Made by a program: the position numbers and the translations under genes | The notes under the pieces: generated by a model | Databases searched by the model: none | Told to the model about the DNA's origin: nothing | Seen by the model: only the letters and a program-made list of their open reading frames with translations | In this document: one piece after another, positions 3,772-57,457 of the stretch | How the letters are laid out: the number at the start of each line of letters is the position of its first letter | How positions within the stretch are numbered: position 1 is the first letter of the stretch | Virus record (IMG/VR): IMGVR_UViG_3300032224_000443 | Location: 1 to 57,457 of that record | DNA length: 57,457 nucleotides | Origin: a virus | Taxonomy: Duplodnaviria > Caudoviricetes | Reading direction: 5' to 3' (one strand)

Positions 3772-3775
3772 TAAT

Positions 3776-5324: not shown

Positions 5325-5372
5325 TAATAATACGATATACATCGTCATACAATCATACAACGGAGAATATAA

Positions 5373-6284: not shown

Positions 6285-6286
6285 CG

Positions 6287-28010: not shown

Positions 28011-28011
28011 T

Positions 28012-29781: not shown

Positions 29782-29818
29782 TTTTACTATACAATAATAC
29801 AGAAAGAAAATTCACAAA

Positions 29819-34758: not shown

Positions 34759-34961
34759 TGCGTGATAGCAAAATAACTGTAACAAAATTTAATAATATAT
34801 TAATAACAGCCGGCAGATACGCACCTTTGCAGACAACTGTTATTGTTAAATTAAACAATCAGACTATAGAGCCTATATCTCTTCTTAAACAGGAAGCAAC
34901 TGATATGTTGGGAACTTTACCCACTGTTCCTAGAGATTCTCCAACTGTTCCGTTTTACTGA
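34758..34961 (+). CDS. Hypothetical protein
   Basis: 67-aa ORF coupled by TAATG; its 3' end overlaps the convergent glycosyltransferase stop. Confidence 0.5.
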   Translation: MRDSKITVTKFNNILITAGRYAPLQTTVIVKLNNQTIEPISLLKQEATDMLGTLPTVPRDSPTVPFY

Positions 34962-37669: not shown

Positions 37670-37686
37670 AACAAACCTCACGTAGA

Positions 37687-43359: not shown

Positions 43360-43620
43360 ATGTCAGCAATTGTACAGTTTCCAACGCCTACAACATTTAG
43401 AAACCTTGCAACTCCTACCGATAACACTGATGGAGCAACCAAAGCGTACGTCGATGGTGCTATTAGTGGTGGTTCTGCAACAGCAAATACGATCTTTGTA
43501 GGAAGTACTGCTCCAGCAAATGCAATTGCTGGTTACTATTGGTTGGATTCAGATTATGGAATATTGAGTATTAATTGTGGAGATGTTAGTAATACCGTTT
43601 GGATATCGGTGTCATATTAA
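43360..43620 (+). CDS. Small fibre/adaptor protein
   Basis: NLATPT...DGATKAYVD fibre motif and C-terminal GSTAP.....G.YWLD...W module. Confidence 0.7.
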   Translation: MSAIVQFPTPTTFRNLATPTDNTDGATKAYVDGAISGGSATANTIFVGSTAPANAIAGYYWLDSDYGILSINCGDVSNTVWISVSY

Positions 43621-43633
43621 TGAAAACCAAGTA

Positions 43634-43641
43634 TATAAATA
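43634..43641 (+). promoter_or_regulatory. T4 late promoter
   Basis: Intergenic TATAAATA 25 nt before ATG 43667. Confidence 0.75.
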
Positions 43642-43666
43642 TTAAAAAAATGGTGTATATTAAGAA

Positions 43667-44044
43667 ATGGCGTTGAATTTTCCACACACTCCTTCAATTG
43701 GTGATACTACATTTACAGGGGGTAGAACCTGGATGTGGGACGGTGCTCGTTGGAATCGTCAATCTATTACAGCAAATAATTTAATAATAACTGGCGCAGT
43801 AACAGCAAATAGTTCTAATGGTGTTGCTGGTCAATTATTAACTTCTAATGGTACTTCTGTTTTTTGGGCCAACACAAGATTAGATCGTCTTGAAGAAGTT
43901 GTTGCTAAAAATTTAGACAACAACACACCCGCTAATGGGTCTGTGTTGACTTATGTGGCAGATTTAAACAAATATTATGTTGTACCTTTAACTCTGGCAG
44001 ATACTGCATTATCCAATACTTCAATGGATGGTGGCAGTTTTTAA
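43667..44044 (+). CDS. Small fibre/adaptor protein
   Basis: N-terminal MALNFP..P..GD......TW.WDG..W, internal AN...G.AGQLL.SNG....W, C-terminal DGGSF. Confidence 0.75.
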   Translation: MALNFPHTPSIGDTTFTGGRTWMWDGARWNRQSITANNLIITGAVTANSSNGVAGQLLTSNGTSVFWANTRLDRLEEVVAKNLDNNTPANGSVLTYVADLNKYYVVPLTLADTALSNTSMDGGSF

Positions 44045-44048
44045 TTCT

Positions 44049-44056
44049 TATAAATA
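44049..44056 (+). promoter_or_regulatory. T4 late promoter
   Basis: Intergenic TATAAATA upstream of AAGGAG-ATG 44104. Confidence 0.75.
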
Positions 44057-44103
44057 CAAATAATAATAACAATAAAAGAATAAATCTTTAAAGGAGAGAA
44101 AAT

Positions 44104-45810
44104 ATGGTTGCGACATCACCCAATTTAATTCAAATCAAACGCGCACAGAATACAGCAGCACCAGGTTCACTAGCAAACGGTGAATTAGCTTGGTCAGCTT
44201 CTTCTAATGCGTTATTCATTGGTAACTATGGTATTGTAACACAAATTGCTAGTGGACAAACTCCAGGTGTTCTTACTGCAAATCAAGCACTTGTTGCTAA
44301 CTCAACTGGTTTTATCAATTCAGTTAAAGCTGGTAACGTTACTATTACTGGAATGCTTACTGCAAACGGAAGTTCTGGTTCTGCTGGACAGATGTTGTTT
44401 TCTGATGGTACTGGTAAAGCATACTGGAACTCACTTGATACATCAATTCCTGCAACATATGTTCAGAACACAGATTCTAGAACACTTTCTGGTAACTTAA
44501 CATTCTCTGGTTCTAAAACTATATTTACTGGTGCTAACGTTAACGTTACAACTGGCGTTATTTCTGGTAATGGTATGTATATTACTGGTGTAGATGCTAA
44601 TTTATTAAATGGTTCTAGTGCTGCTACAATTCTTTCTACAGCAAGTGGATATGCAGATACTGCTTTTGCTAATGCTTCAATTAAAGCTGATAATGCTTTT
44701 GCTAATGCTATTAGCCAATCTAAAACATATGTAGATGCACAGACATTTGATCTTTCAACAAGAACATCCGGCAATTATGTTGCTACTATTACAGCAGGTA
44801 ATGGTATTGATACTCTTTCTGCATCAAGTCATGGTAGCACACCTACTATTACAGTTAAAGCAGGTACTGGTGTTACTGTTAGTGGTTCTGGTGTTAGCAT
44901 TGGTCAATCAGTTGGCACTACTGATAACGTAACATTTAATGACGTTACTATTAATGGTAATACAGCATTAGGTTCAGATTCAACTGATAGAGTACACTTT
45001 AATGGTAAAGTAGATACTACCATACTTCCATCTGCTATCAATTCATATGATTTAGGTTCTGCTAGTTTAGCATGGAATACAGTATACGCAAAAGAAGTTT
45101 CCATTGGTAACGTACATCTAACTGGTACAAATGCAATTATAACTGTAGCTGGTGGATTGACTGTTAATACTAATCTTATTGCTAACGTTGCTACAATTTA
45201 TCATGATTTATATCTTGGTGGTGATCTACATATTACTGGTAACGCAGTTTACTCAAACGTTGAATCATACTCAGTTACTGATCCATTAATCCAATTAGGT
45301 TCTAATAATACACTTACTGACCTTATTGATATTGGTTTCTTTGGTAACTATGGTACAGACGGCAATGCTGCTCATCATAAGCACACAGGTTTCTTCCGTG
45401 ATTCTTCTGATGGTGTCTACAAGATTTTTTACAATCTTGATACTAACCCAGAACTTACTAACTATATTGATACTGGCGATGCATCATATAGACAAGGTAC
45501 ATTGCAAGCATGGTTGAATTCAGGAGCATTTGTTTCTAATGCAACCGGTGTATCAATTATTGGTACAAATACTTATAAAGTAGAAATTACTGCTAATACA
45601 ATCGCATCAAATACATTAACATTGAATGTAGCATTAGCTACTGGTTCTGGTGGTACTGGATACAATACATATAGTGCTGGTGATTTACTAACAGGTACTG
45701 GCGGTGGTTCACTTACTACATTAGGTATTGGAACACAAGGTCAAGTACTTCAAGTAGCAGCTGGCGGAACTTCACTAATTTATGGTGGATTAGACGGCGG
45801 TACATTCTAA
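44104..45810 (+). CDS. Tail fibre protein
   Basis: N-terminal IQIKR...P..L..GELA, YDLGS....W, V.DPLI.L......D..DIGF.G.Y....TG.FRD.SDG motifs, C-terminal LDGGTF; strong SD. Confidence 0.82.
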   Translation: MVATSPNLIQIKRAQNTAAPGSLANGELAWSASSNALFIGNYGIVTQIASGQTPGVLTANQALVANSTGFINSVKAGNVTITGMLTANGSSGSAGQMLFSDGTGKAYWNSLDTSIPATYVQNTDSRTLSGNLTFSGSKTIFTGANVNVTTGVISGNGMYITGVDANLLNGSSAATILSTASGYADTAFANASIKADNAFANAISQSKTYVDAQTFDLSTRTSGNYVATITAGNGIDTLSASSHGSTPTITVKAGTGVTVSGSGVSIGQSVGTTDNVTFNDVTINGNTALGSDSTDRVHFNGKVDTTILPSAINSYDLGSASLAWNTVYAKEVSIGNVHLTGTNAIITVAGGLTVNTNLIANVATIYHDLYLGGDLHITGNAVYSNVESYSVTDPLIQLGSNNTLTDLIDIGFFGNYGTDGNAAHHKHTGFFRDSSDGVYKIFYNLDTNPELTNYIDTGDASYRQGTLQAWLNSGAFVSNATGVSIIGTNTYKVEITANTIASNTLTLNVALATGSGGTGYNTYSAGDLLTGTGGGSLTTLGIGTQGQVLQVAAGGTSLIYGGLDGGTF

Positions 45811-45821
45811 AAAAATAATAG

Positions 45822-45850
45822 TTGATTCTATATAAGTATTTTGTTATTAT
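45822..45850 (+). promoter_or_regulatory. Possible sigma70-type promoter with a nested late-like box
   Basis: TTGATT 45822-45827, 17 nt, TG-n-TATTAT 45842-45850; TATAAGTA 45831-45838. Confidence 0.45.
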
Positions 45851-45874
45851 GGTGTTTTGAAAGGAATATATATA

Positions 45875-46150
45875 ATGAGTGGAGAAATTTTTAATATCTA
45901 TGTAGAAAAACTTATAAACTCAGTAACTGAGCTGACTAAAGCAAGTATATTACAGTCAGCTCAGTTAACATTTTATGAACGTTCAAACGAAGGGCTAAAT
46001 AAAAGAATACAAGAATTAGAAAAACAATTAGAAGAAACTTTAAATAAAGAACAATCTATTGTTGAATCTAATACCGTTAATGAAAATACTGATAATTCAA
46101 ATACTTTTCTTCAACGGGTAAAGAATAAAAAAGACGATTCGCAATTTTGA
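45875..46150 (+). CDS. Small coiled-coil hypothetical protein
   Basis: ATG 45875 after AAGGA; heptad-rich charged sequence unlike the neighbouring fibre genes. Confidence 0.7.
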   Translation: MSGEIFNIYVEKLINSVTELTKASILQSAQLTFYERSNEGLNKRIQELEKQLEETLNKEQSIVESNTVNENTDNSNTFLQRVKNKKDDSQF

Positions 46151-46182
46151 TACGGTATATACCGGATTTGTAAGAGGGCCAT

Positions 46183-46596
46183 ATGGCACAGGCTAATAAT
46201 TTAATTCAAATTAAACGTACCTCTGTATCTGGACGTGCAGCCACTACGACCACCCTCCCAAATCCAGGTGAATTAGCACTCAACATGGCCGATGGAATTT
46301 TATATTCCGGTAATGGTTCATTCATATTTGAGATTGGTGCTAATAATACAAACGTTAATGTTTCCGGAAATCTCACAACAAGAGCAATTATAACTGGCGG
46401 TTCCATAGGATCAAATGGTCAACATTTGTTATCTAATGGTTCTGCTTCTATGTGGCATACAACATTTACTAATAGCGATACGCCTCCTGCAAATCCTATA
46501 TATGGTGACATCTGGTATTATGTAACAGATAATAAACCCTATATGTGGGTTACAGATGGTGGCGGTAGTTTTTGGTATGATTTTCTTCCAGCATAA
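46183..46596 (+). CDS. Small fibre/adaptor protein
   Basis: N-terminal LIQIKR......P.PGELALN..DG.LY, G..GQ.L.SNG....W, C-terminal SDTPP.NP..GDIWY...Y.W..DG...W. Confidence 0.78.
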   Translation: MAQANNLIQIKRTSVSGRAATTTTLPNPGELALNMADGILYSGNGSFIFEIGANNTNVNVSGNLTTRAIITGGSIGSNGQHLLSNGSASMWHTTFTNSDTPPANPIYGDIWYYVTDNKPYMWVTDGGGSFWYDFLPA

Positions 46597-46609
46597 TAGG
46601 TAATAAAGA

Positions 46610-49600
46610 ATGGCATTTCCTAGTAGTCCATATGATGGTCAACAATATACCCAAGCGGGGTATGTTTATCAGTATTATGCTTCTTTAAATCTTTGGAAGA
46701 AAATTTCTGCTGTTTCACAGACTACTACTTCTATTACTACTGGTACTGCTAATATTACTTCTGCTAATATTACTACATCTATCACAAGCAACACAGCAAC
46801 TGTCAATAATGCAATTATAAGTTCTGCTAATATCACCAACATTAATGTTACTGGTACTGCAAACTTTGATGCTGACATTTCTGTTGGTAATGTTTACCTT
46901 ACTGGTATAAGTGCTAATGGTAGTTTTGGAACAGCTGGTCAAATACTTACAGCAAATGGCCATGGAGTATTTTGGAATTCTGCTGCCAGTTTAACTGGTT
47001 ACACAGGATCTATTGGTTACTCTGGATCTATTGGAAACACTGGTTATTCAGGATCAAAAGGTGATATTGGATTTACAGGTTCTAGAGGAAATAATGGTAC
47101 TAATGGTGCAGATGGATATACTGGGTCATTTGGTAATACAGGTTACACCGGATCTTTTGGATCTACTGGTTATACTGGTTCATTAGGTCAAGGATTTACA
47201 TATCAGGGAACATGGACTGGAACAACACACGGATATTATTATCCCTATGATGTTGTTACGTATAATGGTTCAACTTATGTTTGCACAAATCCTGTATACG
47301 GCAATACAATTCCACCAAACGATGCTTCCTGGACATTGATTGCTCAAATGGGATCTACCGGATTTGCCGGTTCCTTTGGTAATACTGGTTATACTGGATC
47401 ATTGGGTGTAACAGGATTTACTGGATCTTTTGGTGATATTGGTTATACTGGTTCAATTGGATTTACTGGCTCATTTGGTAATACTGGATTTACAGGATCA
47501 TTTGGTAATACTGGTTACACAGGTTCTGTAGGATTTACTGGCTCATTTGGTAATACTGGATTTACAGGATCTGCAGGCACTAATGGTACAAACGGAACCA
47601 ATGGTGCTGATGGATATTTAGGATCTACAGGTTTTACCGGATCATTTGGTAATACTGGTTATACTGGATCATTTGGATCTACCGGTTTCACTGGATCATT
47701 TGGTAATGCTGGTTATACCGGTTCAGTTGGATTTACAGGGTCTGTAGGTTTCACTGGATCTTATGGTAATACTGGTTACGTTGGCTCTAAAGGCGATCAA
47801 GGTGCAACAGGTTTAAGCTCAAGTTATTTTACTTATCAAATTAGAACATCATCATATATTACATATGTTGGCGATGGAAATATTGCATATAGTAACACTA
47901 CACAAATAAATTCAAATACTCTTTTTATAAGTCATTTAACAAAAGACAATGTAGATGTTGATATTTTTCTTGGATTGCTTGCAAATACTCAAACAATAGT
48001 TATTCAAGATGCTAACGATAGTACAAATTACCAAGAGTGGTCTATAATTGGCACACCTTATAATCAATACCCAAATAATGGTAATAGTACTTGGGATATT
48101 CCTGTTTCATTAATTAAGTCCGCAGGAACAGGAACTACTAATTTTGCTAGTGCACATACAGTAATTCTTGCTCTAACATCAGGTATTACTGGTTATGTTG
48201 GATCTAAAGGGGATACAGGTTATTCAGGTTCTGTAGGATATACAGGATCTATTGGTAATGTAGGATATACAGGTTCCTTAGGTGACTCAGGTTATGTTGG
48301 TTCAAAAGGTGATCAGGGAATAACTGGTTTCACTGGATCAAAAGGTGACACTGGATCAACAGGGTTTACTGGATCTTTTGGTAATACAGGTTATACTGGA
48401 TCTTTTGGAACAACTGGATTTACCGGATCATTTGGTAACACGGGGTTCACAGGATCTTTTGGTAATACAGGTTATACTGGATCTTTTGGAACAACTGGAT
48501 TTACCGGATCATTTGGTAATACAGGTTACACCGGATCATTTGGTAATACAGGTTACACCGGATCATTTGGTAACACAGGGTTCACTGGATCATTTGGTAA
48601 CACCGGATACACAGGTTCATTTGGATCAACTGGATATACAGGATCTTTTGGACGTGATGGTATACAAGGTGCAAATGGATTTACAGGATCTGTTGGATCA
48701 ACAGGATTTACTGGTTCATTTGGAAACATTGGTTATACTGGTTCAGTAGGTCCTGTTGCAGGTTCTGATACTCAAATTGTTTACAATGCAAGTGGTGTTG
48801 CCAATGCATCGCCATACTTTACTTTTGATTATGTTAACCATGATTTAACCGTTGGTAATAATATTGCTTTAGGAAACAATATTACGTTCAGTGGTTCAAA
48901 TTCTTCTATAACACAAAACAATTTTGTAATTTATTCTAATTGGAAAAATAACACTCAAAATTTAGGTCCTTTGCTTGTATTAGGTAAAAATATAAAGGAC
49001 ATGTATAATGGTGGAGGTGGCAGTACTATATACGATCTTGAAGATAGTTTTGCCCCTGACCAAAATATTTTAATTGCAAACGGAACAGCAATTCAACTTG
49101 GTAGATATGGCAATGCATTAATTGCAAACACAACAGGTATCAATTTTACAGGAAACAAAGGTACCATTAATGGTGTAAAAATACTTTATGCTAATGGTGT
49201 TCTTGGAACAGATAGTCAAGTTCTTTCTACAAATTCAACTGGTGGAATTTATTGGTCTACTACAGTTGGATATGCAGGATCTGTTGGATTTACAGGTTCA
49301 ATTGGTGGAACTGGATATGCTGGATCATTTGGATCTACCGGTTATACTGGATCTTTTGGTAATACGGGTTATACTGGATCAAAGGGTGATCAAGGTAGCT
49401 ATGGTCCTACTGGTTTCACTGGTTCTTTTGGTAACACAGGGTTCACAGGATCCATAGGTAGTGTTGGTTTTACTGGTTCATTTGGTAACACTGGATATAC
49501 AGGTTCAATTGGATCAACAGGATATACTGGTTCATTTGGTAATACTGGATACACTGGATCTATAGGTGGAACAGGATTTACCGGATCTGCAGGAACGAAT

Positions 49601-52600
49601 GGAACCAATGGTACAAATGGTACAAATGGTACTAATGGCACAAATGGTAACGATGGATATCTTGGATCTACAGGCTTTACTGGATCGATAGGATCTACAG
49701 GCTTTACTGGATCGATAGGATCTACTGGTTATGTTGGATCTCAAGGTCCTGCTGGTACATTTGGTGGTGCTGCATTTGATTATTTGTATAGTACTAGCCT
49801 CACACATTTATCAACTGCAAATGGCTATGTGAATTTCAACAATACAAACTTCACATATGCAACTACTTTGTTTATTGATTATCTAGATAACCTAGGTTCA
49901 AATAGCTATAGTTTCTTGCAGACGATAGATGATTCAACATCTTCTATCAAGGGCCACTTCTCAATTAAAGATACGGCTAACGTACTTAACTATGCAATGT
50001 TTGCTATTACAGGTTCATTGGCTCCTGATACTGATCACTTTGATGTTCCAGTTTCATGGTTGAGTGGTGTAACATCATTTACTAATGGTACCAATACAAT
50101 TATCACTTTTGCAAGAACTGGTGATATTGGTCAGACAGGTTACACTGGTTCTGTTGGTATTGGTTATACTGGTTCTGCAGCTGCGAGCACATTCTCTAAT
50201 GGCCAATCTATATCGGTAGCAAATGTAACAATAACACAATCATTAATTGCAAATAACACCGGTGGAAATTCTGGCCAACTGTTATTTTCAAATGGAACAG
50301 GAATATATTGGGCCAATACTCCAACTACTGTTACATATGCTAACGTCAACGTAACAACTATTACAGCAAACAGTCTTGCATCTGATTATATTAATATTGG
50401 TGTTGGTTATCTTACTATAGGTAATAGTACTGTCAATACTACTATATCAAATAACTATTTTAGAGTATCAAATACCACATCCAACGTTGTATATTCACTT
50501 ACAGATTTTAGAGTTCCGGTTGGTAATACAGCACAGCGTCCTGCTAATGCTACTACTGGCTATATTAGATTCAATACTGATACAACAGATTTAGAATATG
50601 CTTCTAATAGCACTCAATGGTATTCTATCACTACTCAAGAGACTCTTACATCAAATAATATTAATATTACTAATACTATTAATATAGGTAATACTGCTAC
50701 CAATACAGTAATTACAAATGCTTCTGTAAGAACAACAACAGCAAATGTCAGTGTAATTAATGCCACTGGCAATGTAATTATATCTGGTAACAATTCAGTA
50801 TTTAAAGTTCCTGTGGGAACAACTGCTCAACGTCCTTCTCCAGCAGCAACTGGTTACATTAGATTTAATACAGACACAACTGATCTTGAATATGCAGCAA
50901 ATTCTACTCAATGGTATTCAATTACTACACAAGAAACATTAACATCTAATAATATTAATATTACAAATCAAATTAATATTGGTAATACTGCTACTAATAC
51001 AACAATTTCTTCCACAAACGTATCAACAACTTATGTTAATACAAGATATATTGTTGCTAATAATGTTATTGGTTCTAATGGTAGCATATTAACATCTAAT
51101 TCAACAGGTGGTATATATTGGTCTAATACAATTACAGCTAACAATTCTAAAGGTGCAGCTGGAAGTGTTCTTACTTCTAACGGCAACGGAATGTATTGGT
51201 CTAATGCAGTCAATACATTAACTGCTACTTCGTTGGTGGCCAATAGCATGGTCGCTGATTCTATAGACATTGGTATTGGTTGGTTGACTGTTGGTAACAG
51301 TACAGTTAATACTCAAATAACCAATACATCAATTGGTACATCTATTGCTACTATGCAAACTGTTTATTTTACTTCCGATTTAAGTACACCATTTTCAACA
51401 TGGTCTACAACATTAGATTCATCAACACCTAAATCTGTTACTATTCCAACTGTTGCTCTTAATAGTGCAACTGGAACCGGATATACTGTAGAATTTTTTG
51501 TTAAATTTACATCATTGTCAACATCTTCTACATTAGATGCATATGGTTCTACTGGTGTTAATTCATTAGGATGGAGTGCAAATACTTCAACTATATCACT
51601 TTACAATAATGGTTATAGTGGTGCAGGTAGTGTAACAGGATTAAATCTTCAAAATGATACTTGGTATCATATGGCCTATATTGGTTATAATGGTGGAACT
51701 TATTTTGCTATTAATGGAATTGTTAAAAATCTTAATACTATTGGTGGTTATAATGGATATGATGCAACAGGTACTTGGACTGGCGGATGGTCTAAATTAA
51801 CCGGTGATGCAACATATTCTAATTTTAGAATTGTAACTGGAAGAAATATTTACAGCGTAGTTGGTTTTACTGCACCACAACAAGCACTTGCTTTTATTAG
51901 TGGTACACAATTACTTGCTTTAAAAACACAACTATTTTGGTATTATAATGCTGCTAGTGGAGGTTCAAGTTATGCAGGACTTCTAACAAGATCTGGTTCG
52001 CCTTTAATGTCTGCAGATAATATTTCTTTATCAACTGGAGTATTAACGGTTGCTGGTAGTATTCAAAACGGTATTTTAGATACGCCATCCATTTATACAA
52101 AATATTTGTATGCTGGAGAATCTTTAGGAACAGATGCTCAAGTATTATCTTCAAATTCAACCGGTGGAATATATTGGTCTTCTGTTATTGGTTATGCAGG
52201 ATCAAAAGGAACTACTGGTTACACAGGATCAATTGGTTCATTAGGGTATACAGGTTCATTTGGTAATACTGGATTTACGGGGTCTGTTGGATATGCAGGT
52301 TCTGTTGGGTCATTGGGTTATACTGGTTCTGTAGGATATACAGGATCTTTTGGTAGCATAGGATATACTGGTTCACAAGGTACTGCTGGCTACACAGGCT
52401 CGTTTGGTTATACCGGATCACAAGGTGATACTGGTTATGTTGGATCTATTGGTTCAGTAGGTTATACAGGTTCTATTGGTGCAGGTTATACAGGATCATC
52501 AGGTTCAGGTTATGTTGGATCAGTAGGTTATACAGGATCATCTGGTTCTGTCGGTTATACGGGTTCATCAGGAGGTGGTGGTTCATCAGTAACTGTATCC

Positions 52601-52777
52601 GCAACAGTACCAGTTTCACCATCTGCAGGAAATCTCTGGTGGAACACTGAAACAGGTTCATTATATATATACTATGATGATGGTGATTCACAGCAATGGG
52701 TATCTGCATCACCTTCACCTGCAGCATCAGCAGTTAAAACATCATTTGGATATTCAATTATATTTGGAGGATACTAA
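46610..52777 (+). CDS. Giant collagen-like fibre protein (2055 aa) with CBM-like and LamG-like domains
   Basis: G(Y/F)TGS(F/I/V)G(N/S)T runs; Y.G.W.....Y...DVVTYNGSTYVC...W module (~47200-47350); TIDDSTS.IKG.F domain; duplicated VPVG.TAQRP...GYIRFNTD; YTVEFFVK...WYH.A...NG...NFRI (ConA/LamG-like); C-terminal P..P..GNLWW...LYIYY.DG...QWV. Confidence 0.85.
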   Translation: MAFPSSPYDGQQYTQAGYVYQYYASLNLWKKISAVSQTTTSITTGTANITSANITTSITSNTATVNNAIISSANITNINVTGTANFDADISVGNVYLTGISANGSFGTAGQILTANGHGVFWNSAASLTGYTGSIGYSGSIGNTGYSGSKGDIGFTGSRGNNGTNGADGYTGSFGNTGYTGSFGSTGYTGSLGQGFTYQGTWTGTTHGYYYPYDVVTYNGSTYVCTNPVYGNTIPPNDASWTLIAQMGSTGFAGSFGNTGYTGSLGVTGFTGSFGDIGYTGSIGFTGSFGNTGFTGSFGNTGYTGSVGFTGSFGNTGFTGSAGTNGTNGTNGADGYLGSTGFTGSFGNTGYTGSFGSTGFTGSFGNAGYTGSVGFTGSVGFTGSYGNTGYVGSKGDQGATGLSSSYFTYQIRTSSYITYVGDGNIAYSNTTQINSNTLFISHLTKDNVDVDIFLGLLANTQTIVIQDANDSTNYQEWSIIGTPYNQYPNNGNSTWDIPVSLIKSAGTGTTNFASAHTVILALTSGITGYVGSKGDTGYSGSVGYTGSIGNVGYTGSLGDSGYVGSKGDQGITGFTGSKGDTGSTGFTGSFGNTGYTGSFGTTGFTGSFGNTGFTGSFGNTGYTGSFGTTGFTGSFGNTGYTGSFGNTGYTGSFGNTGFTGSFGNTGYTGSFGSTGYTGSFGRDGIQGANGFTGSVGSTGFTGSFGNIGYTGSVGPVAGSDTQIVYNASGVANASPYFTFDYVNHDLTVGNNIALGNNITFSGSNSSITQNNFVIYSNWKNNTQNLGPLLVLGKNIKDMYNGGGGSTIYDLEDSFAPDQNILIANGTAIQLGRYGNALIANTTGINFTGNKGTINGVKILYANGVLGTDSQVLSTNSTGGIYWSTTVGYAGSVGFTGSIGGTGYAGSFGSTGYTGSFGNTGYTGSKGDQGSYGPTGFTGSFGNTGFTGSIGSVGFTGSFGNTGYTGSIGSTGYTGSFGNTGYTGSIGGTGFTGSAGTNGTNGTNGTNGTNGTNGNDGYLGSTGFTGSIGSTGFTGSIGSTGYVGSQGPAGTFGGAAFDYLYSTSLTHLSTANGYVNFNNTNFTYATTLFIDYLDNLGSNSYSFLQTIDDSTSSIKGHFSIKDTANVLNYAMFAITGSLAPDTDHFDVPVSWLSGVTSFTNGTNTIITFARTGDIGQTGYTGSVGIGYTGSAAASTFSNGQSISVANVTITQSLIANNTGGNSGQLLFSNGTGIYWANTPTTVTYANVNVTTITANSLASDYINIGVGYLTIGNSTVNTTISNNYFRVSNTTSNVVYSLTDFRVPVGNTAQRPANATTGYIRFNTDTTDLEYASNSTQWYSITTQETLTSNNINITNTINIGNTATNTVITNASVRTTTANVSVINATGNVIISGNNSVFKVPVGTTAQRPSPAATGYIRFNTDTTDLEYAANSTQWYSITTQETLTSNNINITNQINIGNTATNTTISSTNVSTTYVNTRYIVANNVIGSNGSILTSNSTGGIYWSNTITANNSKGAAGSVLTSNGNGMYWSNAVNTLTATSLVANSMVADSIDIGIGWLTVGNSTVNTQITNTSIGTSIATMQTVYFTSDLSTPFSTWSTTLDSSTPKSVTIPTVALNSATGTGYTVEFFVKFTSLSTSSTLDAYGSTGVNSLGWSANTSTISLYNNGYSGAGSVTGLNLQNDTWYHMAYIGYNGGTYFAINGIVKNLNTIGGYNGYDATGTWTGGWSKLTGDATYSNFRIVTGRNIYSVVGFTAPQQALAFISGTQLLALKTQLFWYYNAASGGSSYAGLLTRSGSPLMSADNISLSTGVLTVAGSIQNGILDTPSIYTKYLYAGESLGTDAQVLSSNSTGGIYWSSVIGYAGSKGTTGYTGSIGSLGYTGSFGNTGFTGSVGYAGSVGSLGYTGSVGYTGSFGSIGYTGSQGTAGYTGSFGYTGSQGDTGYVGSIGSVGYTGSIGAGYTGSSGSGYVGSVGYTGSSGSVGYTGSSGGGGSSVTVSATVPVSPSAGNLWWNTETGSLYIYYDDGDSQQWVSASPSPAASAVKTSFGYSIIFGGY
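48371..48519. repeat. 68-bp exact direct repeat in the collagen-like region
   Basis: 48371-48438 = 48452-48519 (81-bp offset). Confidence 0.85.
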
Positions 52778-52779
52778 TA

Positions 52780-53142
52780 ATGGCAGCTCCTAATCTGCTT
52801 TCTTTAACTACAGGTACAGGTAAGACATTACTTGCAAACGTTGTTTATTCTGCAGGATCTAATACTACACTATTAGCTGGAACTACAAACCAAGTTTATA
52901 AAATAAACACAGTGGTAGTTTCTAATATTGATGGTACTACAGGTTATGATGTAACAATGTATTATTATAATGGTTCTGTTGCATATCCAGTTGCATATCA
53001 AATTACAGTTCCTGCAAAATCAACTCTTGTATTGTTTGATAAGTCAGCACAGATTTATCTTGAAGAAACACATTCTCTTCAAGCTGGTACTTCTGCAAAC
53101 AATAAATTAACTGCATTAGTCAGCTATGAGATCTTATCGTAA
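52780..53142 (+). CDS. Small beta-sandwich fibre-associated protein
   Basis: MAAPN......TGKT ... KIN...V.NIDG ... I.VPA.STLV..DK...IYLEE ... SYE. Confidence 0.7.
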   Translation: MAAPNLLSLTTGTGKTLLANVVYSAGSNTTLLAGTTNQVYKINTVVVSNIDGTTGYDVTMYYYNGSVAYPVAYQITVPAKSTLVLFDKSAQIYLEETHSLQAGTSANNKLTALVSYEILS

Positions 53143-54299
53143 TGTCTAGAGAAAACGGTGGAGTTGTAGGCAAATATAATCCTTCTAGTTTAAATACTAC
53201 ATCAGGGGTATATAATATTAAAACTCAGTTTGCTTACAATGCATCGTCATTGTGGCCACGAAGTGGTAGCTTGTTTGTAGGTGTAGCTCATGCATCATCT
53301 CCTTTTTTTTCTATATATTCTTTTTCTTCTTTAGGATTTGGAGCTAAACTTTCAGATCCTGCAACTTTACTTACTAGCTTAAGTAGTTCAATAGGTTTTG
53401 CTCCCAATGGTAAAATTTTAGCAGCTGCGCATTCTTCTACACCCTTCATTAGTGCTTATTCATTTAGCGGTAGCGGAATTGGTACAAAATATAGTAATCC
53501 AGTCTCGCTTCCTGCAGGTACTGGTAATAAAGTAATTTTCAATCCATCAGGCAATACAGTAGTAATGGGTCACGCAATTACACCGTTTATATCAGCTTAT
53601 CCAATTGATATTGTTAATGGTTTTGGTACTAGATACTCTGATCCAACATCATTGCCAGCAGGTACAGTAAACGGAGTGACCTTTAACAATAATGGTACTG
53701 ATTTGTTTGCAGCGCATGCTACATCTCCTTATATTACAGCCTATCAATGGAACAATGGTTTTAGTTCAAAATATAGTAATCCTGGTACACCAGTATCCAC
53801 AAGTGGTCCTACTGGTCAATCTATTGTAGTTACAGCAGCAGGTACAACAGTTATTTTAGGAACTTCTTCTTCTCAAAATGCTGAAGTTGTTTATTACAAT
53901 GCATGGGATTTTGTTTCTGGTGTGGGTTTTGGAAGTAAGCAGAGTGGCATGCCAACACAACCTGGTGGGACACCGGGTGAAGATATAACTGAAGTTTCTC
54001 TAAAACCAGATGAAACTGCTATAGCAGCATCAACTAATGGCAAATCCCCATATGTTTTTACATATGCATATAACAATGGATTTGGCACTAGATACTCAGA
54101 TCCTACAACACTTCCAGCTGGAGCTGGTCAAAGTGTTGCATTTGATCCCAATGGTCAATATTTAGCTGTAGCACATTCATCTTCACCTTATATAACTGTA
54201 TATCCATGGAGTACTAATACAGGATATGGGACAAAAATATCCAATCCAACTACTTTACCTACTGGTAACGGAAATGGAATTGCTTGGGGAAGAGTTTAA
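53142..54299 (+). CDS. Beta-propeller protein (about 7 blades), candidate receptor-binding
   Basis: Repeats of ~45 aa: F.P.G..L..AH..SP.I.AY.....GFG..YS.P..LP.G. Confidence 0.8.
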   Translation: MSRENGGVVGKYNPSSLNTTSGVYNIKTQFAYNASSLWPRSGSLFVGVAHASSPFFSIYSFSSLGFGAKLSDPATLLTSLSSSIGFAPNGKILAAAHSSTPFISAYSFSGSGIGTKYSNPVSLPAGTGNKVIFNPSGNTVVMGHAITPFISAYPIDIVNGFGTRYSDPTSLPAGTVNGVTFNNNGTDLFAAHATSPYITAYQWNNGFSSKYSNPGTPVSTSGPTGQSIVVTAAGTTVILGTSSSQNAEVVYYNAWDFVSGVGFGSKQSGMPTQPGGTPGEDITEVSLKPDETAIAASTNGKSPYVFTYAYNNGFGTRYSDPTTLPAGAGQSVAFDPNGQYLAVAHSSSPYITVYPWSTNTGYGTKISNPTTLPTGNGNGIAWGRV

Positions 54300-54323
54300 T
54301 TTTTTAATACAGGAGAACTACAA

Positions 54324-54692
54324 ATGACTATACAATTTTATTCAATTACAGATAACGATAAGAAACTAAATCTTGCAAGAGCATTAGTAGGACGTGAGAA
54401 TGAAATTCATTCTTATGATGTTAATATTGGTAATTATGAAGCAATTTTAATATCACTTCCTTCTGATGATTGGCCGGATCTTATTGCATCATATAAAAAC
54501 ACACCTATTGATTCTGTACCTTCTGATCTTCAACAAAATGTCACAGACTATCAATTTAGAGATAGAGTAAGAGCACTTGTTGCGACAGAAAGACTAGAAA
54601 GAAGCAAATCTGTAAAAGTATATGAAGCGATTGTTGCTCAATTACCTGAGAATGAAATTTCTACATTAGTTGCACAAGTATTAGCGTCTTAA
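54324..54692 (+). CDS. Hypothetical helical protein (possible fibre assembly chaperone)
   Basis: AGGAG SD; charged helical 122-aa protein directly after the propeller gene. Function is a guess from position. Confidence 0.6.
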   Translation: MTIQFYSITDNDKKLNLARALVGRENEIHSYDVNIGNYEAILISLPSDDWPDLIASYKNTPIDSVPSDLQQNVTDYQFRDRVRALVATERLERSKSVKVYEAIVAQLPENEISTLVAQVLAS

Positions 54693-54725
54693 TAAATACT
54701 AGAGTATTCATAACAGAAAAATAAC

Positions 54726-56225
54726 ATGGCAATTAATTTTCCTAGTAATCCAACAAATAATCAGATATACTCCTATGGTAGCCAGAATTGGTTCTGGGCT
54801 AATAATTATGGGGTGTGGCAAGTTAATACTGCTGTAACTGGTTATGTTGGATCATTAGGTTATACTGGATCTACTGGTTATACAGGATCTGTTGGTTTTG
54901 TAGGTTCTAAAGGTGATATAGGATATACCGGATCACAAGGTTATACTGGTTCTGCAGGATACATCGTTAATTCTGCTGCAACTATTGATACTGAAATTAC
55001 TGCTGATGCTCCTCTTGCTTGGTGGAAGTTCAACGAAACTTCTGGTACTACAATTACCAACTATGGTTCGTTAGGATCGGGGATTAATCTAACATTGAGT
55101 GGTACCTGGACTCTAGGTTCTGCCAAGATTGTACCATCATCTAATGATTTGTTTGCATTTTGTGCTACTACATCTTCATATGCTAGTGTTGCTAATACTA
55201 TTTTTGGAGTACCACATACTGGTGATCATACGTTAGAAGCTATATTGGTATTAACCAGCGATGGTACAAATGCTAATAGAGTATTCAGTATTACGGATGT
55301 TGGTGAAACTTCCGCTACCAACATGCAAGCTGCATTATTTGCAACTACAGCTGGTGAACTTTTTGATTTTTGGGAATATAGTTCAGGTACTAACGTTGAC
55401 GTTACTTCAAACGTACAAGTTAAAAGAGGTGAACCTATCCATGTTGTTTTTGTTAAAAATAGTACAGCAAAAACAGTAACATATTATGTAAATGGTATAA
55501 AGACAAATGTCATTAGTTATACTAACGAACCTACTGGTGGTAGTACAACTTATATTAGAATTGGTAATAACGGTACTGATACTACATCACGTTTTGCTAT
55601 TGCTCATATGGCAGCATATAATACACAATTATCAGATGCTAGAATTCTACAACATGCCAAAGCTGCTGGTCTTTATTCTTACGGTTATGTTTATTCTTCT
55701 CAAATTGCAGGTTATGTGGGATCGCAAGGTAACTTAGGTTATACAGGATCTATAGGGTATACAGGCTCTATTGGTTTTACTGGATCCTTTGGATCAACTG
55801 GATATACAGGATCATTTGGAACAACTGGATTTACTGGATCAGTTGGATTTACTGGATCAGTTGGGTTTTTAGGGTCTGTTGGGTTTGTAGGTTCAAGAGG
55901 AAACACCGGTTTCACTGGATCTGCTGGTTTTACTGGATCTGTTGGTTTTACTGGATCAGTTGGATTTGTGGGTTCTGCAGGTGTTGGATATGCAGGTTCA
56001 AGCGGTTCTTCTGCTACAATCAATACAGCTGCTTCTTATGCATTTACTAACGTTACTGCATCAGGAAATGCCACAACAGGTGCTATTACAACAACCGGTG
56101 GTATTGGTGTTGCAAATAACGTTTATGTTGGAGGTCGTGTGGGATGGTCTAATACCACAAACATAAGTGTGGTGTATACATATTATAATACAACTACCAA
56201 TTCTCTCGATACGGTATTTGGTTAA
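54726..56225 (+). CDS. Collagen-like fibre protein with LamG/ConA-like lectin domain
   Basis: MAINFPS.P N-terminus; G(Y/F)TGS runs flanking PLAWWKFNETSG...TLEA...HVVFV...YVNG...A.YN..LS...I..H. AATAAATA late-like box at 54691-54698. Confidence 0.82.
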   Translation: MAINFPSNPTNNQIYSYGSQNWFWANNYGVWQVNTAVTGYVGSLGYTGSTGYTGSVGFVGSKGDIGYTGSQGYTGSAGYIVNSAATIDTEITADAPLAWWKFNETSGTTITNYGSLGSGINLTLSGTWTLGSAKIVPSSNDLFAFCATTSSYASVANTIFGVPHTGDHTLEAILVLTSDGTNANRVFSITDVGETSATNMQAALFATTAGELFDFWEYSSGTNVDVTSNVQVKRGEPIHVVFVKNSTAKTVTYYVNGIKTNVISYTNEPTGGSTTYIRIGNNGTDTTSRFAIAHMAAYNTQLSDARILQHAKAAGLYSYGYVYSSQIAGYVGSQGNLGYTGSIGYTGSIGFTGSFGSTGYTGSFGTTGFTGSVGFTGSVGFLGSVGFVGSRGNTGFTGSAGFTGSVGFTGSVGFVGSAGVGYAGSSGSSATINTAASYAFTNVTASGNATTGAITTTGGIGVANNVYVGGRVGWSNTTNISVVYTYYNTTTNSLDTVFG

Positions 56226-57457
56226 TGGCAACAAAAGTTGTTTTTCTTACTAGCGGTTCAACTTGGACTGTTCCGTTAGATTTTAATTTTTCAAACAATA
56301 CTATAGAAGCTATCGGTGGCGGTGGTGGTAGTGGCTCTGCTTGGCCATCTGGTGGTGCAGGTGGTGGCGGTGGCGCATATACTAAATTAAGTAATTTTTA
56401 TCTAACTCCAGGACAAGTAGTTAATATCAATATTGGTACGGGTGCTGCAACTCCTACCTCTAATGGTGGTGATACTTGGTTAAACACAGCCGCAGCTTCT
56501 GCACCAACATCTTCTGCAACTGGATTATTAGCAAAAGGTGGTTCCTATAGTTCTACCACAACAGGTGGTTTAGGTGGCCAAGCATCTGCATGTATTCCTT
56601 CAGCTTCTGCATTTAGTGGTGGTGATGGAGGCACTGGCGGTGTTAATGGAGGCGGTGGTGGCGGTGGTGGAGCAGCAGGTCCAAATGGAGCTGGTGGTAC
56701 TGGTGGTCCATCAAATAATGGTACTGGTGGTGGTGGCGGTGGCGCCAATGGTGGTACAAATGGTACTGCTAGTGTAGGTGGTACGGGAGGTGGATCACCA
56801 ACTGGTGCTGCTGGTAGCGGCGTTCAATCGCCTGGAGGTACAGGAGCTGGAGGCGGCGGTGGTGGCGGTGGTGCAGGAGGAAGCAACTATCGAGGCGGAG
56901 AAGGTGGCGTAGGTGTTTACTGGACTGCAACCAGCACCACATCTCAAACAACCACTATTAGTATTGCCAATCCAGGTGTATTTACCGTTACAACTGCTCC
57001 ACAATCTGGAACACAAGTTGTATTTTCTACTACTGGTGCACTTCCCACAGGTATTACAGCAGGTACAACTTATTATGTTGTTGCTATTTTTTCTGGCGGC
57101 GTTACTTCTACTACCACGTTTAGTATAGCCGCTACTCTTAACGGAACAGCTATTACGACAACTGGCACACAATCTGGTACTCATACTGCAACATTTACTG
57201 CGGTTGCAGGTCCGGGTGGTGGTTCTGGTGCTGGTACTAGTACCAGTGGTCCTCCTACAACAACTGGTTCTGGTGGTCTTTATGGTGGTGGACAAGGAAA
57301 TCAAAATGGTGATACAAGTGGTAGTGCTAGACAAGGTATTATTGTTGTAACATATACGACACCTATATATGCAAAAAGATTGACTTCTTCTGGTAATTTA
57401 TATATTAATGGTTCATTTGATGAAGTAACTGGTTTAACGGGTGTAGCTACTAGAACA
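56225..57457 (+). CDS. Glycine-rich fibre protein (3'-truncated; absent from the ORF track)
   Basis: ATG 56225 (TAATG overlap) opens MATKVVFLTSGSTWTVP...IEAIGGGGG...GGGGGAY...V.I.IG...QGIIVVTY...KRLTSSGNLYINGSFDEV and stays open to the window end. Confidence 0.8.
   Translation, partial: MATKVVFLTSGSTWTVPLDFNFSNNTIEAIGGGGGSGSAWPSGGAGGGGGAYTKLSNFYLTPGQVVNINIGTGAATPTSNGGDTWLNTAAASAPTSSATGLLAKGGSYSSTTTGGLGGQASACIPSASAFSGGDGGTGGVNGGGGGGGGAAGPNGAGGTGGPSNNGTGGGGGGANGGTNGTASVGGTGGGSPTGAAGSGVQSPGGTGAGGGGGGGGAGGSNYRGGEGGVGVYWTATSTTSQTTTISIANPGVFTVTTAPQSGTQVVFSTTGALPTGITAGTTYYVVAIFSGGVTSTTTFSIAATLNGTAITTTGTQSGTHTATFTAVAGPGGGSGAGTSTSGPPTTTGSGGLYGGGQGNQNGDTSGSARQGIIVVTYTTPIYAKRLTSSGNLYINGSFDEVTGLTGVATRT

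Follow-up and report, generated by a model that had tools for sequence, protein, structure and literature searches.

The fibre locus analysed here likely encodes a segmented fibre chain, whose successive parts would be connected by two kinds of terminal module that we call joints A and B. It lies in a stretch of 57,457 nucleotides (hereafter the window) that covers part of the genome of an uncultured T4-like myovirus; all the genes and termini described in the initial annotation were found there. Specifically, we consider it reasonably probable that fibre segments are chained end to end through both joints. The products of the locus would be fibre segments, presumably trimers, joined non-covalently, with the C-terminal end of each protein meeting the N-terminal head of a protein encoded one or two genes downstream. 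In joint B, an end of the form D-G-G-[ST]-[FY] (C-B) would meet an N-terminal head (N-B; IQ[IF]KR..GELA.., about 60 residues). Joint A would bring a protein's extreme C-terminal module (C-A; P..P..GD.W...Y.W...W, about 33 residues) together with a homologous N-terminal module (N-A). With genes and products designated by their first nucleotide, joint A would serve 43360 to 43667 and 46183 to 46610, and joint B would occur twice in series, from 43667 to 44104 and from 44104 to 46183; the most likely chain, we infer, runs 43360, 43667, 44104, 46183, 46610.

Gene organisation of the locus

Genes were called with our own open reading frame heuristic (Table 1); spacers of 13-59 nt mark the small ones as separate genes. 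The product of 37728 has T7-tail-fibre-like N-terminal domains, collagen-like repeats and a C-terminal domain of non-collagen type, and the C-A module is absent from it. In the homologous large fibre of four relatives (L009, L011, L012 and L034), the C-A module is the direct end of the protein, and a T7-tail-like fibre that itself bears the first C-A would be the anchor of the chain. The split layout of the window, a large fibre plus a small 43360-like gene, recurs in contig L104, where the 43360 homologue has 135 aa and occupies the equivalent position. In 43360 the module makes up the last 35 residues (about nt 43510-43614), and BLASTP matches this protein to the C-terminal 40 residues of the large fibre in each of those four relatives.

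Table 1. Features of the fibre locus, in positions of the window.
Feature	Position	Strand	Evidence or remark
Large fibre protein, 1875 aa, probable proximal segment	37728..43355	+	Pfam Collagen 1.8e-100, Phage_T7_tail 6.5e-14
C-A donor, 86 aa	43360..43620	+	C-A HMM 6.1e-13, residues 51-85 of 86
TATAAATA, spacer 5' of 43667	43634..43641	+	Second copy 44049-44056, 5' of 44104
Adaptor, 125 aa	43667..44044	+	N-A HMM 2.3e-17, N-A module residues 1-33
Middle segment, 568 aa	44104..45810	+	N-B head ..NLIQIKR..GELA, C-terminal ..LDGGTF (C-B)
Small helical / coiled-coil protein	45875..46150	+	Sits between C-B gene and next N-B gene
Converter, 137 aa	46183..46596	+	N-B head residues 1-60; C-A HMM 7.7e-20
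Long collagen-like fibre, 2055 aa	46610..52777	+	N-A HMM 4.9e-12, C-A HMM 2.5e-15, Collagen 1.4e-83
Three accessory genes of the 46610 cassette: 120, 385, 122 aa	52780..54692	+	
Separate collagen-like fibre with N-A head, 499 aa	54726..56225	+	N-A HMM 9.3e-16, Collagen 8.4e-20

Besides its N-A module, the adaptor 43667 carries one G..GQ.L.SNG..W unit and then the C-B end ..MDGGSF; the D-G-G-x-F end is invariant in an alignment (A3) of seven such adaptors, and relatives of 43667 have a terminal C-A gene upstream and an N-B gene downstream. Homologues of the middle segment 44104 (436-906 aa) with both ends alike were found in most of 80 related loci, and gene 093 of the isolate P-HM1 has an equal layout. 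In the window, 44104 is preceded by the Shine-Dalgarno-like AAAGGAGAG. We take the copies of TATAAATA to be possible T4-type late promoters, to which only their suggestive placement in both spacers points; the motif is not enriched in the window (9 matches against 15.2 expected from shuffling). The coiled-coil reading frame between 44104 and 46183 probably opens with the 45875 ATG; its product has weak family matches only, and chaperone and joint accessory are candidate roles. In the converter 46183, the N-B head leads into a single GQ.L.SNG..W unit, after which comes the terminal C-A (residues 101-135, end WYDFLPA). That such small converters are real, as had been proposed, is borne out by 19 full-length 46183 relatives (134-144 aa, many samples), by the seven adaptors and by the 43360-like gene of L104.

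The long fibre 46610 has an N-A head (residues 1-33), its N-terminus being common to six relatives, and a C-A module at 2001-2033. The initial annotation had C-A ending 43360, 46183 and 46610, which is accurate for the first two; the module does not end 46610, because a 22-residue tail (..IIFGGY) comes after it. The pairing proposed between 46610 and 54726 across three genes, one of which (385 aa) has a product with weak beta-propeller-like matches, is likewise not supported, since it reflects repeated cassettes of a fibre plus accessory genes. Wherever a gene carries C-A plus a tail (7 of 7 distinct cases), its downstream neighbour encodes about 110-120 aa, and the next N-A lies three to four genes on in all 5 cases without a contig-end cut (background 155/556), so that the spacing from 46610 to 54726 is explained by cassette periodicity. 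On the same basis 54726, which has no adjacent terminal C-A partner, opens the next cassette; it and many other N-A-headed fibres would constitute separate cassettes.

Joint B and the T4 gp36-gp37 joint

To judge from sequence homology, joint B is of the type that connects gp36 to gp37 in phage T4. C-B is the literal C-terminus of 43667 and 44104, and N-B opens 44104 and 46183. Across 80 contigs fetched around N-B (969 genes called; here and in the counts below, rows dereplicated for identical terminal sequence only), an N-B gene comes after 84 of 89 distinct C-B genes, 40 directly and 44 one gene later (5 not), against an N-B background of 148/969, although these and the other adjacency counts are not independent events, because the contigs are related and share ancestry. 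A C-B gene precedes 84 of the 107 distinct N-B genes, with 19 lacking one and 4 lying at a contig edge. The intervening gene of the 44 pairs encodes a small coiled coil (60-88 aa in 29 of them), and the pairing of C-B with N-B, including the skipped coiled coil, thus extends well beyond the window.

The N-B HMM, searched against a small reference set, matches gp37 of T4 (residues 1-51, 7.5e-13), Ac42 (3.5e-16) and KFS-EC (6.4e-14), and the corresponding gp36 proteins end in ..DFGYY, ..DYGTY and ..DFGTF, with the general form D-x-G-x-[FY]. The adjacency of the two ends is conserved in these three phages and in P-HM1, where gene 092 (..GGSF) is followed by 093 (N-B head, DGGTF end), 094 (a coiled coil at the position matching 45875) and an N-B gene. 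In tblastn, the N-terminus of 46183 matches gene 37 of T4-like phages (best 3e-5); the search returned 201 phage records, and among the 40 listed, 2 are from Prochlorococcus phage P-HM1 (gene annotated gp7) and most of the other 38 match the starts of genes annotated gene 37, tail fibre or long-tail-fibre distal subunit. The same N-terminus matches PHROGs families of long-tail-fibre distal subunits. According to PMC3004832, the gp36 trimer binds gp37 within its N-terminal region. Overall homology of the adaptor family to gp36 was not found (hhalign probability 0.2%), and the likeness of C-B to gp36 therefore consists of five residues and their position.

The N-B head, with 64-85% identity across some 90 residues, recurs on bodies that range from 109 to 2855 aa, so that the segment swapping anticipated by the initial annotation is visible in these genes. 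Such conserved heads on very different bodies would allow distal segments to be exchanged by recombination.

Joint A and alternative readings of the terminal modules

Joint A is apparently an undescribed type of joint, and none of the solved structures searched covers any of the four end modules. Its two halves had been described as a distinct plug and socket; they are instead variants of one module of roughly 33 residues that is also found internally and in tandem. N-A opens 43667, 46610 and 54726, and the HMM built from N-A sequences matches N-termini only (residues 1-36). Terminal C-A occurs 28 times in 166 loci, giving 15 distinct pairs of terminal C-A and next gene. With the next gene scored by HMM at E <= 1e-8, N-A follows directly in 10 of the 15, against a background of 134/1706 distinct genes; a divergent look-alike that the HMM leaves unscored follows in 2, N-A is the second gene downstream in 2, and 1 has none. 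The proteins involved have dissimilar bodies and range from an 86-135-aa donor through converters (137, 142 and 309 aa) and a 538-aa protein to large fibres of 1195-1412 aa. The subtypes of the two modules also co-vary, ..WISVSY-type ends occurring with MALNFP..GGKTW.WDGSRW heads (7 pairs) and ..WYDFLP-type ends with other heads (5 pairs). The motifs of the initial annotation are thus real and four of its five pairings in gene order hold across many phage contigs, the fifth being that of 46610 with 54726; by HMM, the adjacency of C-B to N-B and of terminal C-A to N-A is commoner than chance would give, and the reverse relation, from N-A to an upstream terminal C-A, does not hold.

A model of three copies of 46183 with three of 46610(1-110) gave ipSAE values of 0.80, 0.80 and 0.79, against 0.14 for the best of three controls, in agreement with the cognate trimer contact proposed; the score is the model's own confidence, obtained for this one cognate pair of ends. 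The calibration mark was reached by 58/80 solved complexes and 2/110 mismatched pairs, although the 3+3 set-up is unlike that calibration. The model drew on alignments of our own making, which were shallow (19 and 7 rows); its runs had at least 93% of their contacts in common, and partner pLDDT was at least 85. The modelled interface comprises residues 101, 113, 116-117, 120, 125-133 and 135-137 of 46183 and residues 2-3, 5, 15-20 and 26-34 of 46610, so that the predicted contacts are confined to exactly the C-A of the one and the N-A of the other.

Read from the N-A side, the association is far looser: among 89 distinct N-A genes on 79 contigs only 5 have a terminal C-A upstream, a locus may hold up to six N-A genes, and in two loci (L010 and L032) the large fibre is without C-A, yet an N-A adaptor comes next. 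N-A is thus a generic N-terminus of many fibres, not generally tied to an upstream C-A as had been supposed, and must have other docking sites or need none. The 84 N-A genes lacking such a partner suit the idea that N-A and N-B are generic anchors fixing separate fibres to the baseplate or tail, their adjacency being inherited gene order; in the isolates P-SSM2, S-CAM4 and S-TIP28, the gene upstream of N-A lacks a terminal C-A, the gp7 that carries the N-B head in P-HM1 is annotated as a baseplate protein, and the loci are related, so that adjacency is partly inherited. We nevertheless judge this idea unlikely, given that the N-B-type head of T4 gp37 joins gp36 and not the baseplate, that 43667, 46183 and 43360 consist of little beyond end modules and have no evident role as independent fibres, that N-A comes after terminal C-A even where the bodies are unrelated, and that the predicted interface sits on both modules.

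C-A is often internal, with up to five copies per protein, and is therefore not in itself a terminal plug; one terminal C-A protein (L144) lies amid replication genes without N-A nearby. The module also occurs in tandem within single chains, in copies matched by both HMMs, P0092 having six about 39 residues apart, and P0126, P0146 and P0205 having two N-terminal copies each. Joint A can accordingly be read as in-trans stacking of modules that are neighbours in one chain elsewhere. Internal and repeated copies would also suit a reading in which C-A is a folding or registration (trimerisation) module of collagen-like and beta-structured fibres and N-A an N-terminal cap, the ends persisting mainly as recombination patches without binding each other. 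We regard this as quite unlikely, even though C-A often stands right after collagen-like repeats (the large-fibre ends of L009 and L012; 46610) and in most of the 80 loci N-B genes are homologous to 46183 only as far as about residue 91-106, beyond which the bodies differ, the pattern expected from recombination at conserved boundaries. It leaves unexplained the start of N-A after terminal C-A in 10-14 of the 15 cases, the co-variation of subtypes and the collagen-free converters, and the complex model favours contact; it is, moreover, compatible with docking, because docking heads double as recombination patches. That the small reading frames are artefacts, either fragments of an assembly-broken fibre gene or parts joined in vivo by frameshifting or readthrough, is very improbable: 43360 does begin in the +1 frame, 4 nt beyond the 37728 stop, and its C-A is a covalent large-fibre end in several relatives, but the independent contig L104 shows the split with a C-terminal domain alike and a small reading frame with its own ATG, full-length converters and adaptors recur, the spacers bear start signals, and no locus gene has an N-A or N-B HMM match that begins beyond residue 15.

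Comparison with known fibre systems

The end-to-end chain favoured here most resembles the T4 long tail fibre (gp34-gp35-gp36-gp37), in which successive genes likewise encode successive segments, the N-terminus of gp37 is homologous to the N-B head, and the D-x-G-x-[FY] end of gp36 is resembled by the protein preceding N-B. Unlike T4, the locus would use the gp36-gp37-type joint two times in a row, through a middle protein bearing both kinds of end, and places a small coiled-coil gene inside the second C-B/N-B pair; its adaptor shows no detectable gp36 homology, no gp35-like kneecap gene was recognised at the locus, and its proximal fibre combines collagen repeats with a T7-tail-fibre-like head.

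[quoted passage not shown] The sequences at the locus differ, a T4gp10-like or other Pfam domain was not found in the small proteins of the window, and in place of a side branch the joint appears to be end-on between two homologous modules. A candidate branched counterpart may be S-TIP28, in which a T7-like tail fibre with an internal C-A (139-171) is followed by an N-A-headed pectin-lyase-like gene. As to the module itself, DUF2793 (PF10983), whose proteins are often annotated as tail fibres according to PMC5026251, comes near N-A through P0096, a distant N-A-profile match whose near-match (26.7 bits against a cut-off of 27) covers the P..P..G.. segment; the window proteins gave no match at E <= 1 to DUF2793, DUF7360 or DUF2510-type W-rich modules. 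Finally, according to PMC9700779, PMC10253068 and PMC11414711, phiKp24, RaK2 and CBA120-like TSP complexes have serial fibre genes whose products assemble mutually, and the multi-protein fibres of these jumbo phages and Ackermannviridae share with the locus many fibre genes in a row. Those fibres are branched and involve unrelated proteins and hosts, whereas a linear chain is the simplest reading of the locus described here.

The virus and its run of fibre genes

The window, an entire IMG/VR viral contig, 57,457 bases long, is an estimated 35% or so complete, has a G+C content of 28-40% and carries T4-type tail and baseplate genes upstream of its fibre genes (wedge subunits of phrog_219 and phrog_438 and a hub/lysozyme-like protein). 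Its gp6-like wedge protein shares only 36-40% identity with the best matches in phage isolates, whose hosts are Stenotrophomonas, Caulobacter, Sinorhizobium and Pelagibacter, and this low identity, together with the T4-type genes, points to a divergent, uncultured T4-like myovirus. Between 37.7 kb and the window's end, every long ORF lies on the plus strand and is fibre-like in look. Collagen Gly-X-Y repeats (PF01391) scored above the cut-off in 37728, a large T7-tail-like collagen fibre (1.8e-100; genes are named by their start coordinate), in 46610 (1.4e-83) and in 54726 (8.4e-20); the same test found none in the small converters. Among the neighbouring genes (see table), the ORF trio upstream of the fibre genes looks like a giant structural protein split across three genes, and the Peptidase_S74 protein is one more fibre or spike, independent and not part of the chain.

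The initial annotation had read genes 43360-56225 as fibre genes chained head to tail by matching terminal motifs: a C-A end with an N-A head (both with a P..P..G..W pattern; here joint A), and a C-B end, DGG(S/T)F, with an N-B head, ..IQIKR..GELA (joint B). ORF translation bears out nearly all of the motifs it had assigned. Specifically, 43667 and 44104 end in ..MDGGSF and ..LDGGTF, 44104 and 46183 open with ..NLIQIKR..GELA, 43667, 46610 and 54726 open with MA(x)(N)FP..P.., and 43360 and 46183 end in C-A; the C-A assigned to the end of 46610 occupies residues 2001-2033 of its 2055, ahead of a tail of 22 residues. The four motifs matched no Pfam family at E <= 1 on the small proteins, and in PHROGs the N-B region corresponds to the N-terminus of 'long tail fiber distal subunit' families. 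A third unit, G..GQ.L.SNG....W, also recurs and may mark a module boundary, because the match to relatives of 46183 usually ends just after it.

Positions of the features in the window and in related loci
Sequence	Position	Strand	Feature
Window	24933-31522	+	Three successive ORFs of 1025, 589 and 567 aa, matching parts 4-944, 948-1250 and 1422-1635 of phrog_358 (2056-position PHROG family, function unknown)
Window	32634-34442	+	602-aa fibre-like protein with C-terminal Peptidase_S74 (endosialidase intramolecular chaperone) domain
Window	34955-37681	-	908-aa protein with group-1 and family-2 glycosyltransferase domains; sole minus-strand gene between baseplate and fibre genes
Window	43667-52777	+	G..GQ.L.SNG....W unit, once each in 43667, 44104 and 46183, at least five times in 46610
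Window	45875-46150	+	Small helical protein; 44 distinct relatives in L005-L084
Window	52780-54692		Cassette site
Window	56225-57457		Cassette site
L009	10001-17315		Cassette site
L012	14340-18270		Cassette site
L014	15645-19138		Cassette site
L172 (Synechococcus phage S-CAM4)	2484-4969		48-aa ORF, almost only one terminal module, then a 775-aa gene with a similar module-like N-terminal stretch
L174 (Synechococcus T7-like virus S-TIP28)	2721-6452		C-A just after the tail-fibre N-terminal region

Probable joint B and the small genes around it

An HMM of the N-B head, built from 55 metagenomic locus sequences and the window's two, matches gp37 of T4 (residues 1-51, 7.5e-13), Acinetobacter phage Ac42 (3.5e-16) and Escherichia phage KFS-EC (6.4e-14); Prochlorococcus phage P-HM1 was the fourth reference, and Klebsiella phage CPRSB was left out because its record is too fragmented. 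Consistently, tblastn with 46183 (137 aa), the converter, matched 201 phage records, with the best hit (E 3e-5) at the start of gene 37 in T4-like phages. Among the 40 matches listed, two are P-HM1, in a gene annotated gp7, and most of the other 38 are to the beginning of a gene whose annotation is gene 37, tail fibre or long-tail-fibre distal subunit. The product of the gene before 37, gp36, ends in ..DFGYY in T4 (outside the stricter C-B expression used for the counts), ..DYGTY in Ac42 and ..DFGTF in KFS-EC. P-HM1 has the layout of the window, with 092 (73 aa, ..GGSF), 093 (559 aa, N-B at the start and IDGGTF at the end), 094 (a 68-aa coiled coil) and next the protein annotated gp7, which has an N-B head and exceeds 2000 aa. 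A review of the T4 tail (PMC3004832) has the gp36 trimer attach first to the N-terminal part of gp37, and a 2026 preprint gives the T4 distal rod as (gp36)3-(gp37)3. Taken together, these signatures indicate that type B is, in all probability, the T4 gp36-gp37 joint.

Gene order around the joint is conserved. With relatives of 46183 aligned as the query, 80 stretches of viral contig around N-B heads were collected; the scan rests on a close-family alignment (A2), the upstream gene was kept out of the query, ORFs were called by our own heuristic and C-B was defined as an end matching [DN][GFY]G[STAQDN][FY]. An N-B gene follows 84 of the 89 distinct C-B genes (40 directly, 44 after one gene, neither in 5), against a background of 148 N-B genes among 969 called, and C-B lies upstream of 84 of the 107 distinct N-B genes (none in 19, contig edge in 4); the contigs are related, so these counts, like those for joint A, measure conservation and not independent events. 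The genes intervening between C-B and N-B are mostly small: 29 of the 44 distinct ones encode 60-88 aa (the longest, 212 aa). A helical start resembling a coiled coil is common to many of their products; the tail of this small protein turns from basic to acidic, and F or Y is the last residue in 23 of 44, compared with 27% of all genes in those loci. The coiled-coil protein may act as a chaperone, as T4 gp57A does, or as an accessory of the joint.

The head is conserved, the body is not. The match to 46183 stops near residue 91-106 in most of the 80 loci (the closer ones share 64-85% identity), and behind the N-B head stand proteins of 109 to 2855 aa whose ends are unrelated (collagen with ..VFGG, coiled coils, ..GTWA and others), in line with the segment swapping that the initial annotation had proposed. 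In one locus, L010, the head is fused straight to a 1543-aa collagen-like fibre, with no internal A-A joint, which suggests that in the window a C-A/N-A joint breaks up a fibre of this kind. The tiny converters are likewise real: full-length relatives of 46183, each of 134-144 aa, number 19. When the phage collection was searched as DNA and as protein with 43360-46610 and 44104, nothing matched, and single-protein scans of viral contigs with 44104 and 43667 gave no relatives.

The C-A module of the window's separate 86-aa protein forms the last 40 residues of the large fibre in four loci (L009, L011, L012 and L034); the window's own large fibre ends in another domain instead. The same split occurs in L104, where that C-terminal domain precedes a protein of 135 aa that shares its N-terminus with the window's 86-aa protein and finishes in a terminal C-A (a C-A at the very end of the protein); the split is therefore inherited, not an assembly error. 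Intergenic spacers measure 13-59 nt, and the one before 44104 has a Shine-Dalgarno-like AAAGGAGAG. TATAAATA is present in the spacers before 43667 and 44104, with no enrichment in the window (9 matches, 15.2 expected).

Proposed joint A: one module at both ends

Within fibre loci, the N-A and C-A HMMs show no cross-matches. N-A always starts within the first 15 residues of a gene, and C-A is often internal (at 206-240 in one protein of 522 aa and at 1393-1424 in one of 1654 aa, for instance), with up to five copies per protein. A profile of 28 N-A heads run against 1.84 billion representative proteins (E <= 1e-3) returned 17,487 matches, which is not a family size, being inflated by Kelch-repeat proteins (3 of 9 checked). 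In those cellular proteins (P0095, P0100 and P0104) the cross-match is to the second half of the profile, G..tW.WdG..W; specificity for the module needs the P..P..G part. Among the best 150 matches, 26 carry the module at residues 1 to 33-39. Other matches hold the whole motif as internal tandem repeats, such as the six copies about 39 residues apart in P0092; P0126, P0146 and P0205 have two copies at the N-terminus. Two candidate internal carriers (P0103 and P0123) were discarded, as they look like garbled gene calls. The tandem copies are matched by both HMMs, and for this reason we conclude that N-A and C-A are variants of one module of about 33 residues, stackable in tandem in a single chain. 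The type A plug and socket of the initial annotation, which had them as two motif types, are thus separable by HMM in fibre loci, yet belong to a single module. Against Pfam DUF2793 and DUF7360, the window's proteins had no match at E <= 1, and P0096, a distant N-A relative, scored 26.7 against a cut-off of 27.

Terminal C-A was surveyed in 166 loci, including the window, with 2200 genes called heuristically; 28 such genes make up 15 distinct pairs with their next gene. N-A follows directly in 10 of the 15 (E <= 1e-8), compared with a background of 134 N-A genes among 1706 distinct genes. In two more pairs (L164 and L167) the next gene opens with a divergent N-A look-alike that the HMM does not score, in two (L102 and L122, close relatives) the N-A gene comes second, after one intervening gene, and in the last (L144) the terminal C-A protein sits among replication genes with no N-A nearby. 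The intervening gene of L102 and L122 encodes 346-352 aa; fibre glycosylation, by its product and/or by the window's 908-aa glycosyltransferase-domain protein, is a possibility.

Carriers of terminal C-A include the large T7-tail-like fibre (L009, L011, L012, L034, L086 and L167), small donors (43360 in the window, and L104), N-B converters of 137, 142 and 309 aa and one 538-aa protein. Subtypes of A co-occur: ..WISVSY-type ends are found with MALNFP..GGKTW.WDGSRW heads, and ..WYDFLP-type ends with MAFPSSPYDGQQYTQ-type or two other head types. L164 shows the whole joint grammar on a different gene set, running from a C-B-like end to an N-B..C-A protein (309 aa), an N-A-like..C-B protein (391 aa) and N-B. 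Counter-examples are L010 and L032, in which the large fibre ends without C-A, yet an N-A adaptor is next. A search for fused 'Rosetta-stone' forms, long proteins with a WYDFLP-type C-A, found none, a weak result because the search depends on shared words.

The reverse relation does not hold. In a second scan, centred on the adaptor family (that of 43667) and yielding 79 further contig stretches with 89 distinct N-A genes, the gene before N-A had a terminal C-A in only 5 of 89 cases and none of the motifs in 60. N-A, found in up to six genes per locus and mostly without an upstream terminal C-A, is thus a general head shared by many fibres. Adjacency enrichment, offered in the initial annotation as a check on the chain, is accordingly present for C-B followed by N-B and for terminal C-A followed by N-A, and does not hold in general when read backwards from N-A.

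The proposed pairing of 46610 with 54726 fares worse; cassette periodicity fits better, with 54726 as the start of the next fibre-plus-accessory cassette. Genes that end, like 46610, in C-A plus a tail (..FGG or similar) are followed by a gene of about 110-120 aa in 7 of 7 distinct cases, and in each of the 5 cases that no contig end truncates, the next N-A gene is three or four genes downstream; N-A lies within four genes of other genes of at least 200 aa in 155 of 556. This periodicity, together with repeated units in L009, L012 and L014, indicates that fibre genes recur in tandem, each forming a cassette with its accessory genes. At the cassette sites, the order is a fibre gene ending in ..FGG, ..FG or ..FLLAGM, a protein of about 110-120 aa (MA.PNI.. 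or MATTYKVLGQ.. types) and a glycine-rich protein of about 250-800 aa; some loci have a 116-138-aa protein starting MAHFA.. just before the next N-A gene.

Three copies of 46183 (19-row alignment) were modelled with three copies of residues 1-110 of 46610 (7-row alignment). Interface scores (ipSAE) were 0.80, 0.80 and 0.79, compared with 0.14 for the best of three controls, none of which was a non-cognate end pair. The mark is one that 58 of 80 solved complexes, and 2 of 110 mismatched pairs, had attained in calibration, under conditions that differ from our own alignments and 3+3 set-up. Runs agree in at least 93% of contacts, with partner pLDDT at least 85. The confident contacts of 46183 (101, 113, 116-117, 120, 125-133 and 135-137) fall in its C-A module and C-terminus and those of 46610 (2-3, 5, 15-20 and 26-34) in its N-A module, the tightest joining 130-133 of 46183 to 26-31 of 46610, as expected of strand pairing. 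A profile search of the converter and adaptor families against solved structures gave noise only (E >= 0.04); with no sequence-similar solved structure, reproduction of an already solved complex is an unlikely source of the high score. The model supports predicted binding of 46183 to 46610 through C-A and N-A, and it may reproduce the in-cis stacking of tandem modules. As a mechanism, we propose that joint A would be this stacking of tandem modules in trans.

A possible docking code and its relation to known fibres

Host range is decided by fibre architecture, and in the T4 paradigm fibre segments from consecutive genes are chained; for the abundant uncultured T4-like phages of natural waters, to our knowledge, almost nothing is known of which fibre genes form one fibre. 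A joint grammar readable from sequence would allow fibre composition to be predicted from the genome alone, and would explain both the tiny conserved ORFs between fibre genes and the exchange of distal receptor-binding segments with the joints fixed. Joint B ties the system directly to T4, an experimentally testable phage, and joint A rests on a module that is unannotated and, in the window's proteins, unmatched in Pfam.

Experiments on the A module are feasible since it stands at the start of fibre-like genes in cultured cyanophages: N-A heads open P-SSM2 gene 296, S-CAM4 gene 194 and S-TIP28 gene 50 (annotated pectin lyase). The genes upstream of these three have no terminal C-A; internal copies are found in P-SSM2 fibre 295 (591-624) and in the S-TIP28 T7-like tail fibre (139-171). 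Internal C-A before N-A genes may leave room for side-on docking, and the S-TIP28 pair is, from its sequence, a possible two-RBP branched system in a cyanopodovirus. A bolder reading, which we put forward tentatively and consider rather unlikely, is that N-A and C-A constitute a portable homotypic docking code in aquatic phages, both myoviruses and T7-like podoviruses, in which any N-A-headed fibre or spike seats on C-A, end-on at a terminal C-A to give chains and sideways at an internal one to give branches, as in S-TIP28. Under such a code, a virion could combine receptor-binding segments drawn from many cassettes in varying sets, and the tiny converters would translate between the A code and the T4 gp36/gp37 code.

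Elements of such an architecture have precedents. In Klebsiella podophages, a conserved N-terminal element docks on a domain of the upstream RBP (PMC13352976), and hyperbranched fibres are reported in jumbo phages (PMC9700779, PMC10253068). Searches of open-access full text turned up no account of the gp36/gp37 signature far beyond the T-even group or of its serial use, of an end-on joint between two homologous 33-residue modules, or of small converter proteins. Unlike KP32-type branched RBPs, 43360, 43667, 44104 and 46183 (E <= 1) and 37728 and 46610 (E <= 0.01) have no T4gp10-like domain by Pfam. N-A is comparable in position to the KP32-type docking peptide but has no sequence relation to it, and its binding is a prediction of the complex model.

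The likeness to T4 gp36-gp37 is closer on the downstream side. The upstream protein has no overall gp36 homology: 43667 was rejected as a gp36 homologue (hhalign of adaptor alignment A3 against Ac42 gp36, probability 0.2%), as was T4 gp36 as an N-A carrier (HMM E 0.085 over 7 residues), so that the C-terminal likeness consists of the last five residues, D-[GFY]-G-x-[FY], and their position. By contrast, the downstream proteins of the window carry the gp37-type N-terminal domain, and the genes stand in proximal-to-distal order as in T4, from 43667 to 44104 and, across the coiled-coil gene, from 44104 to 46183.
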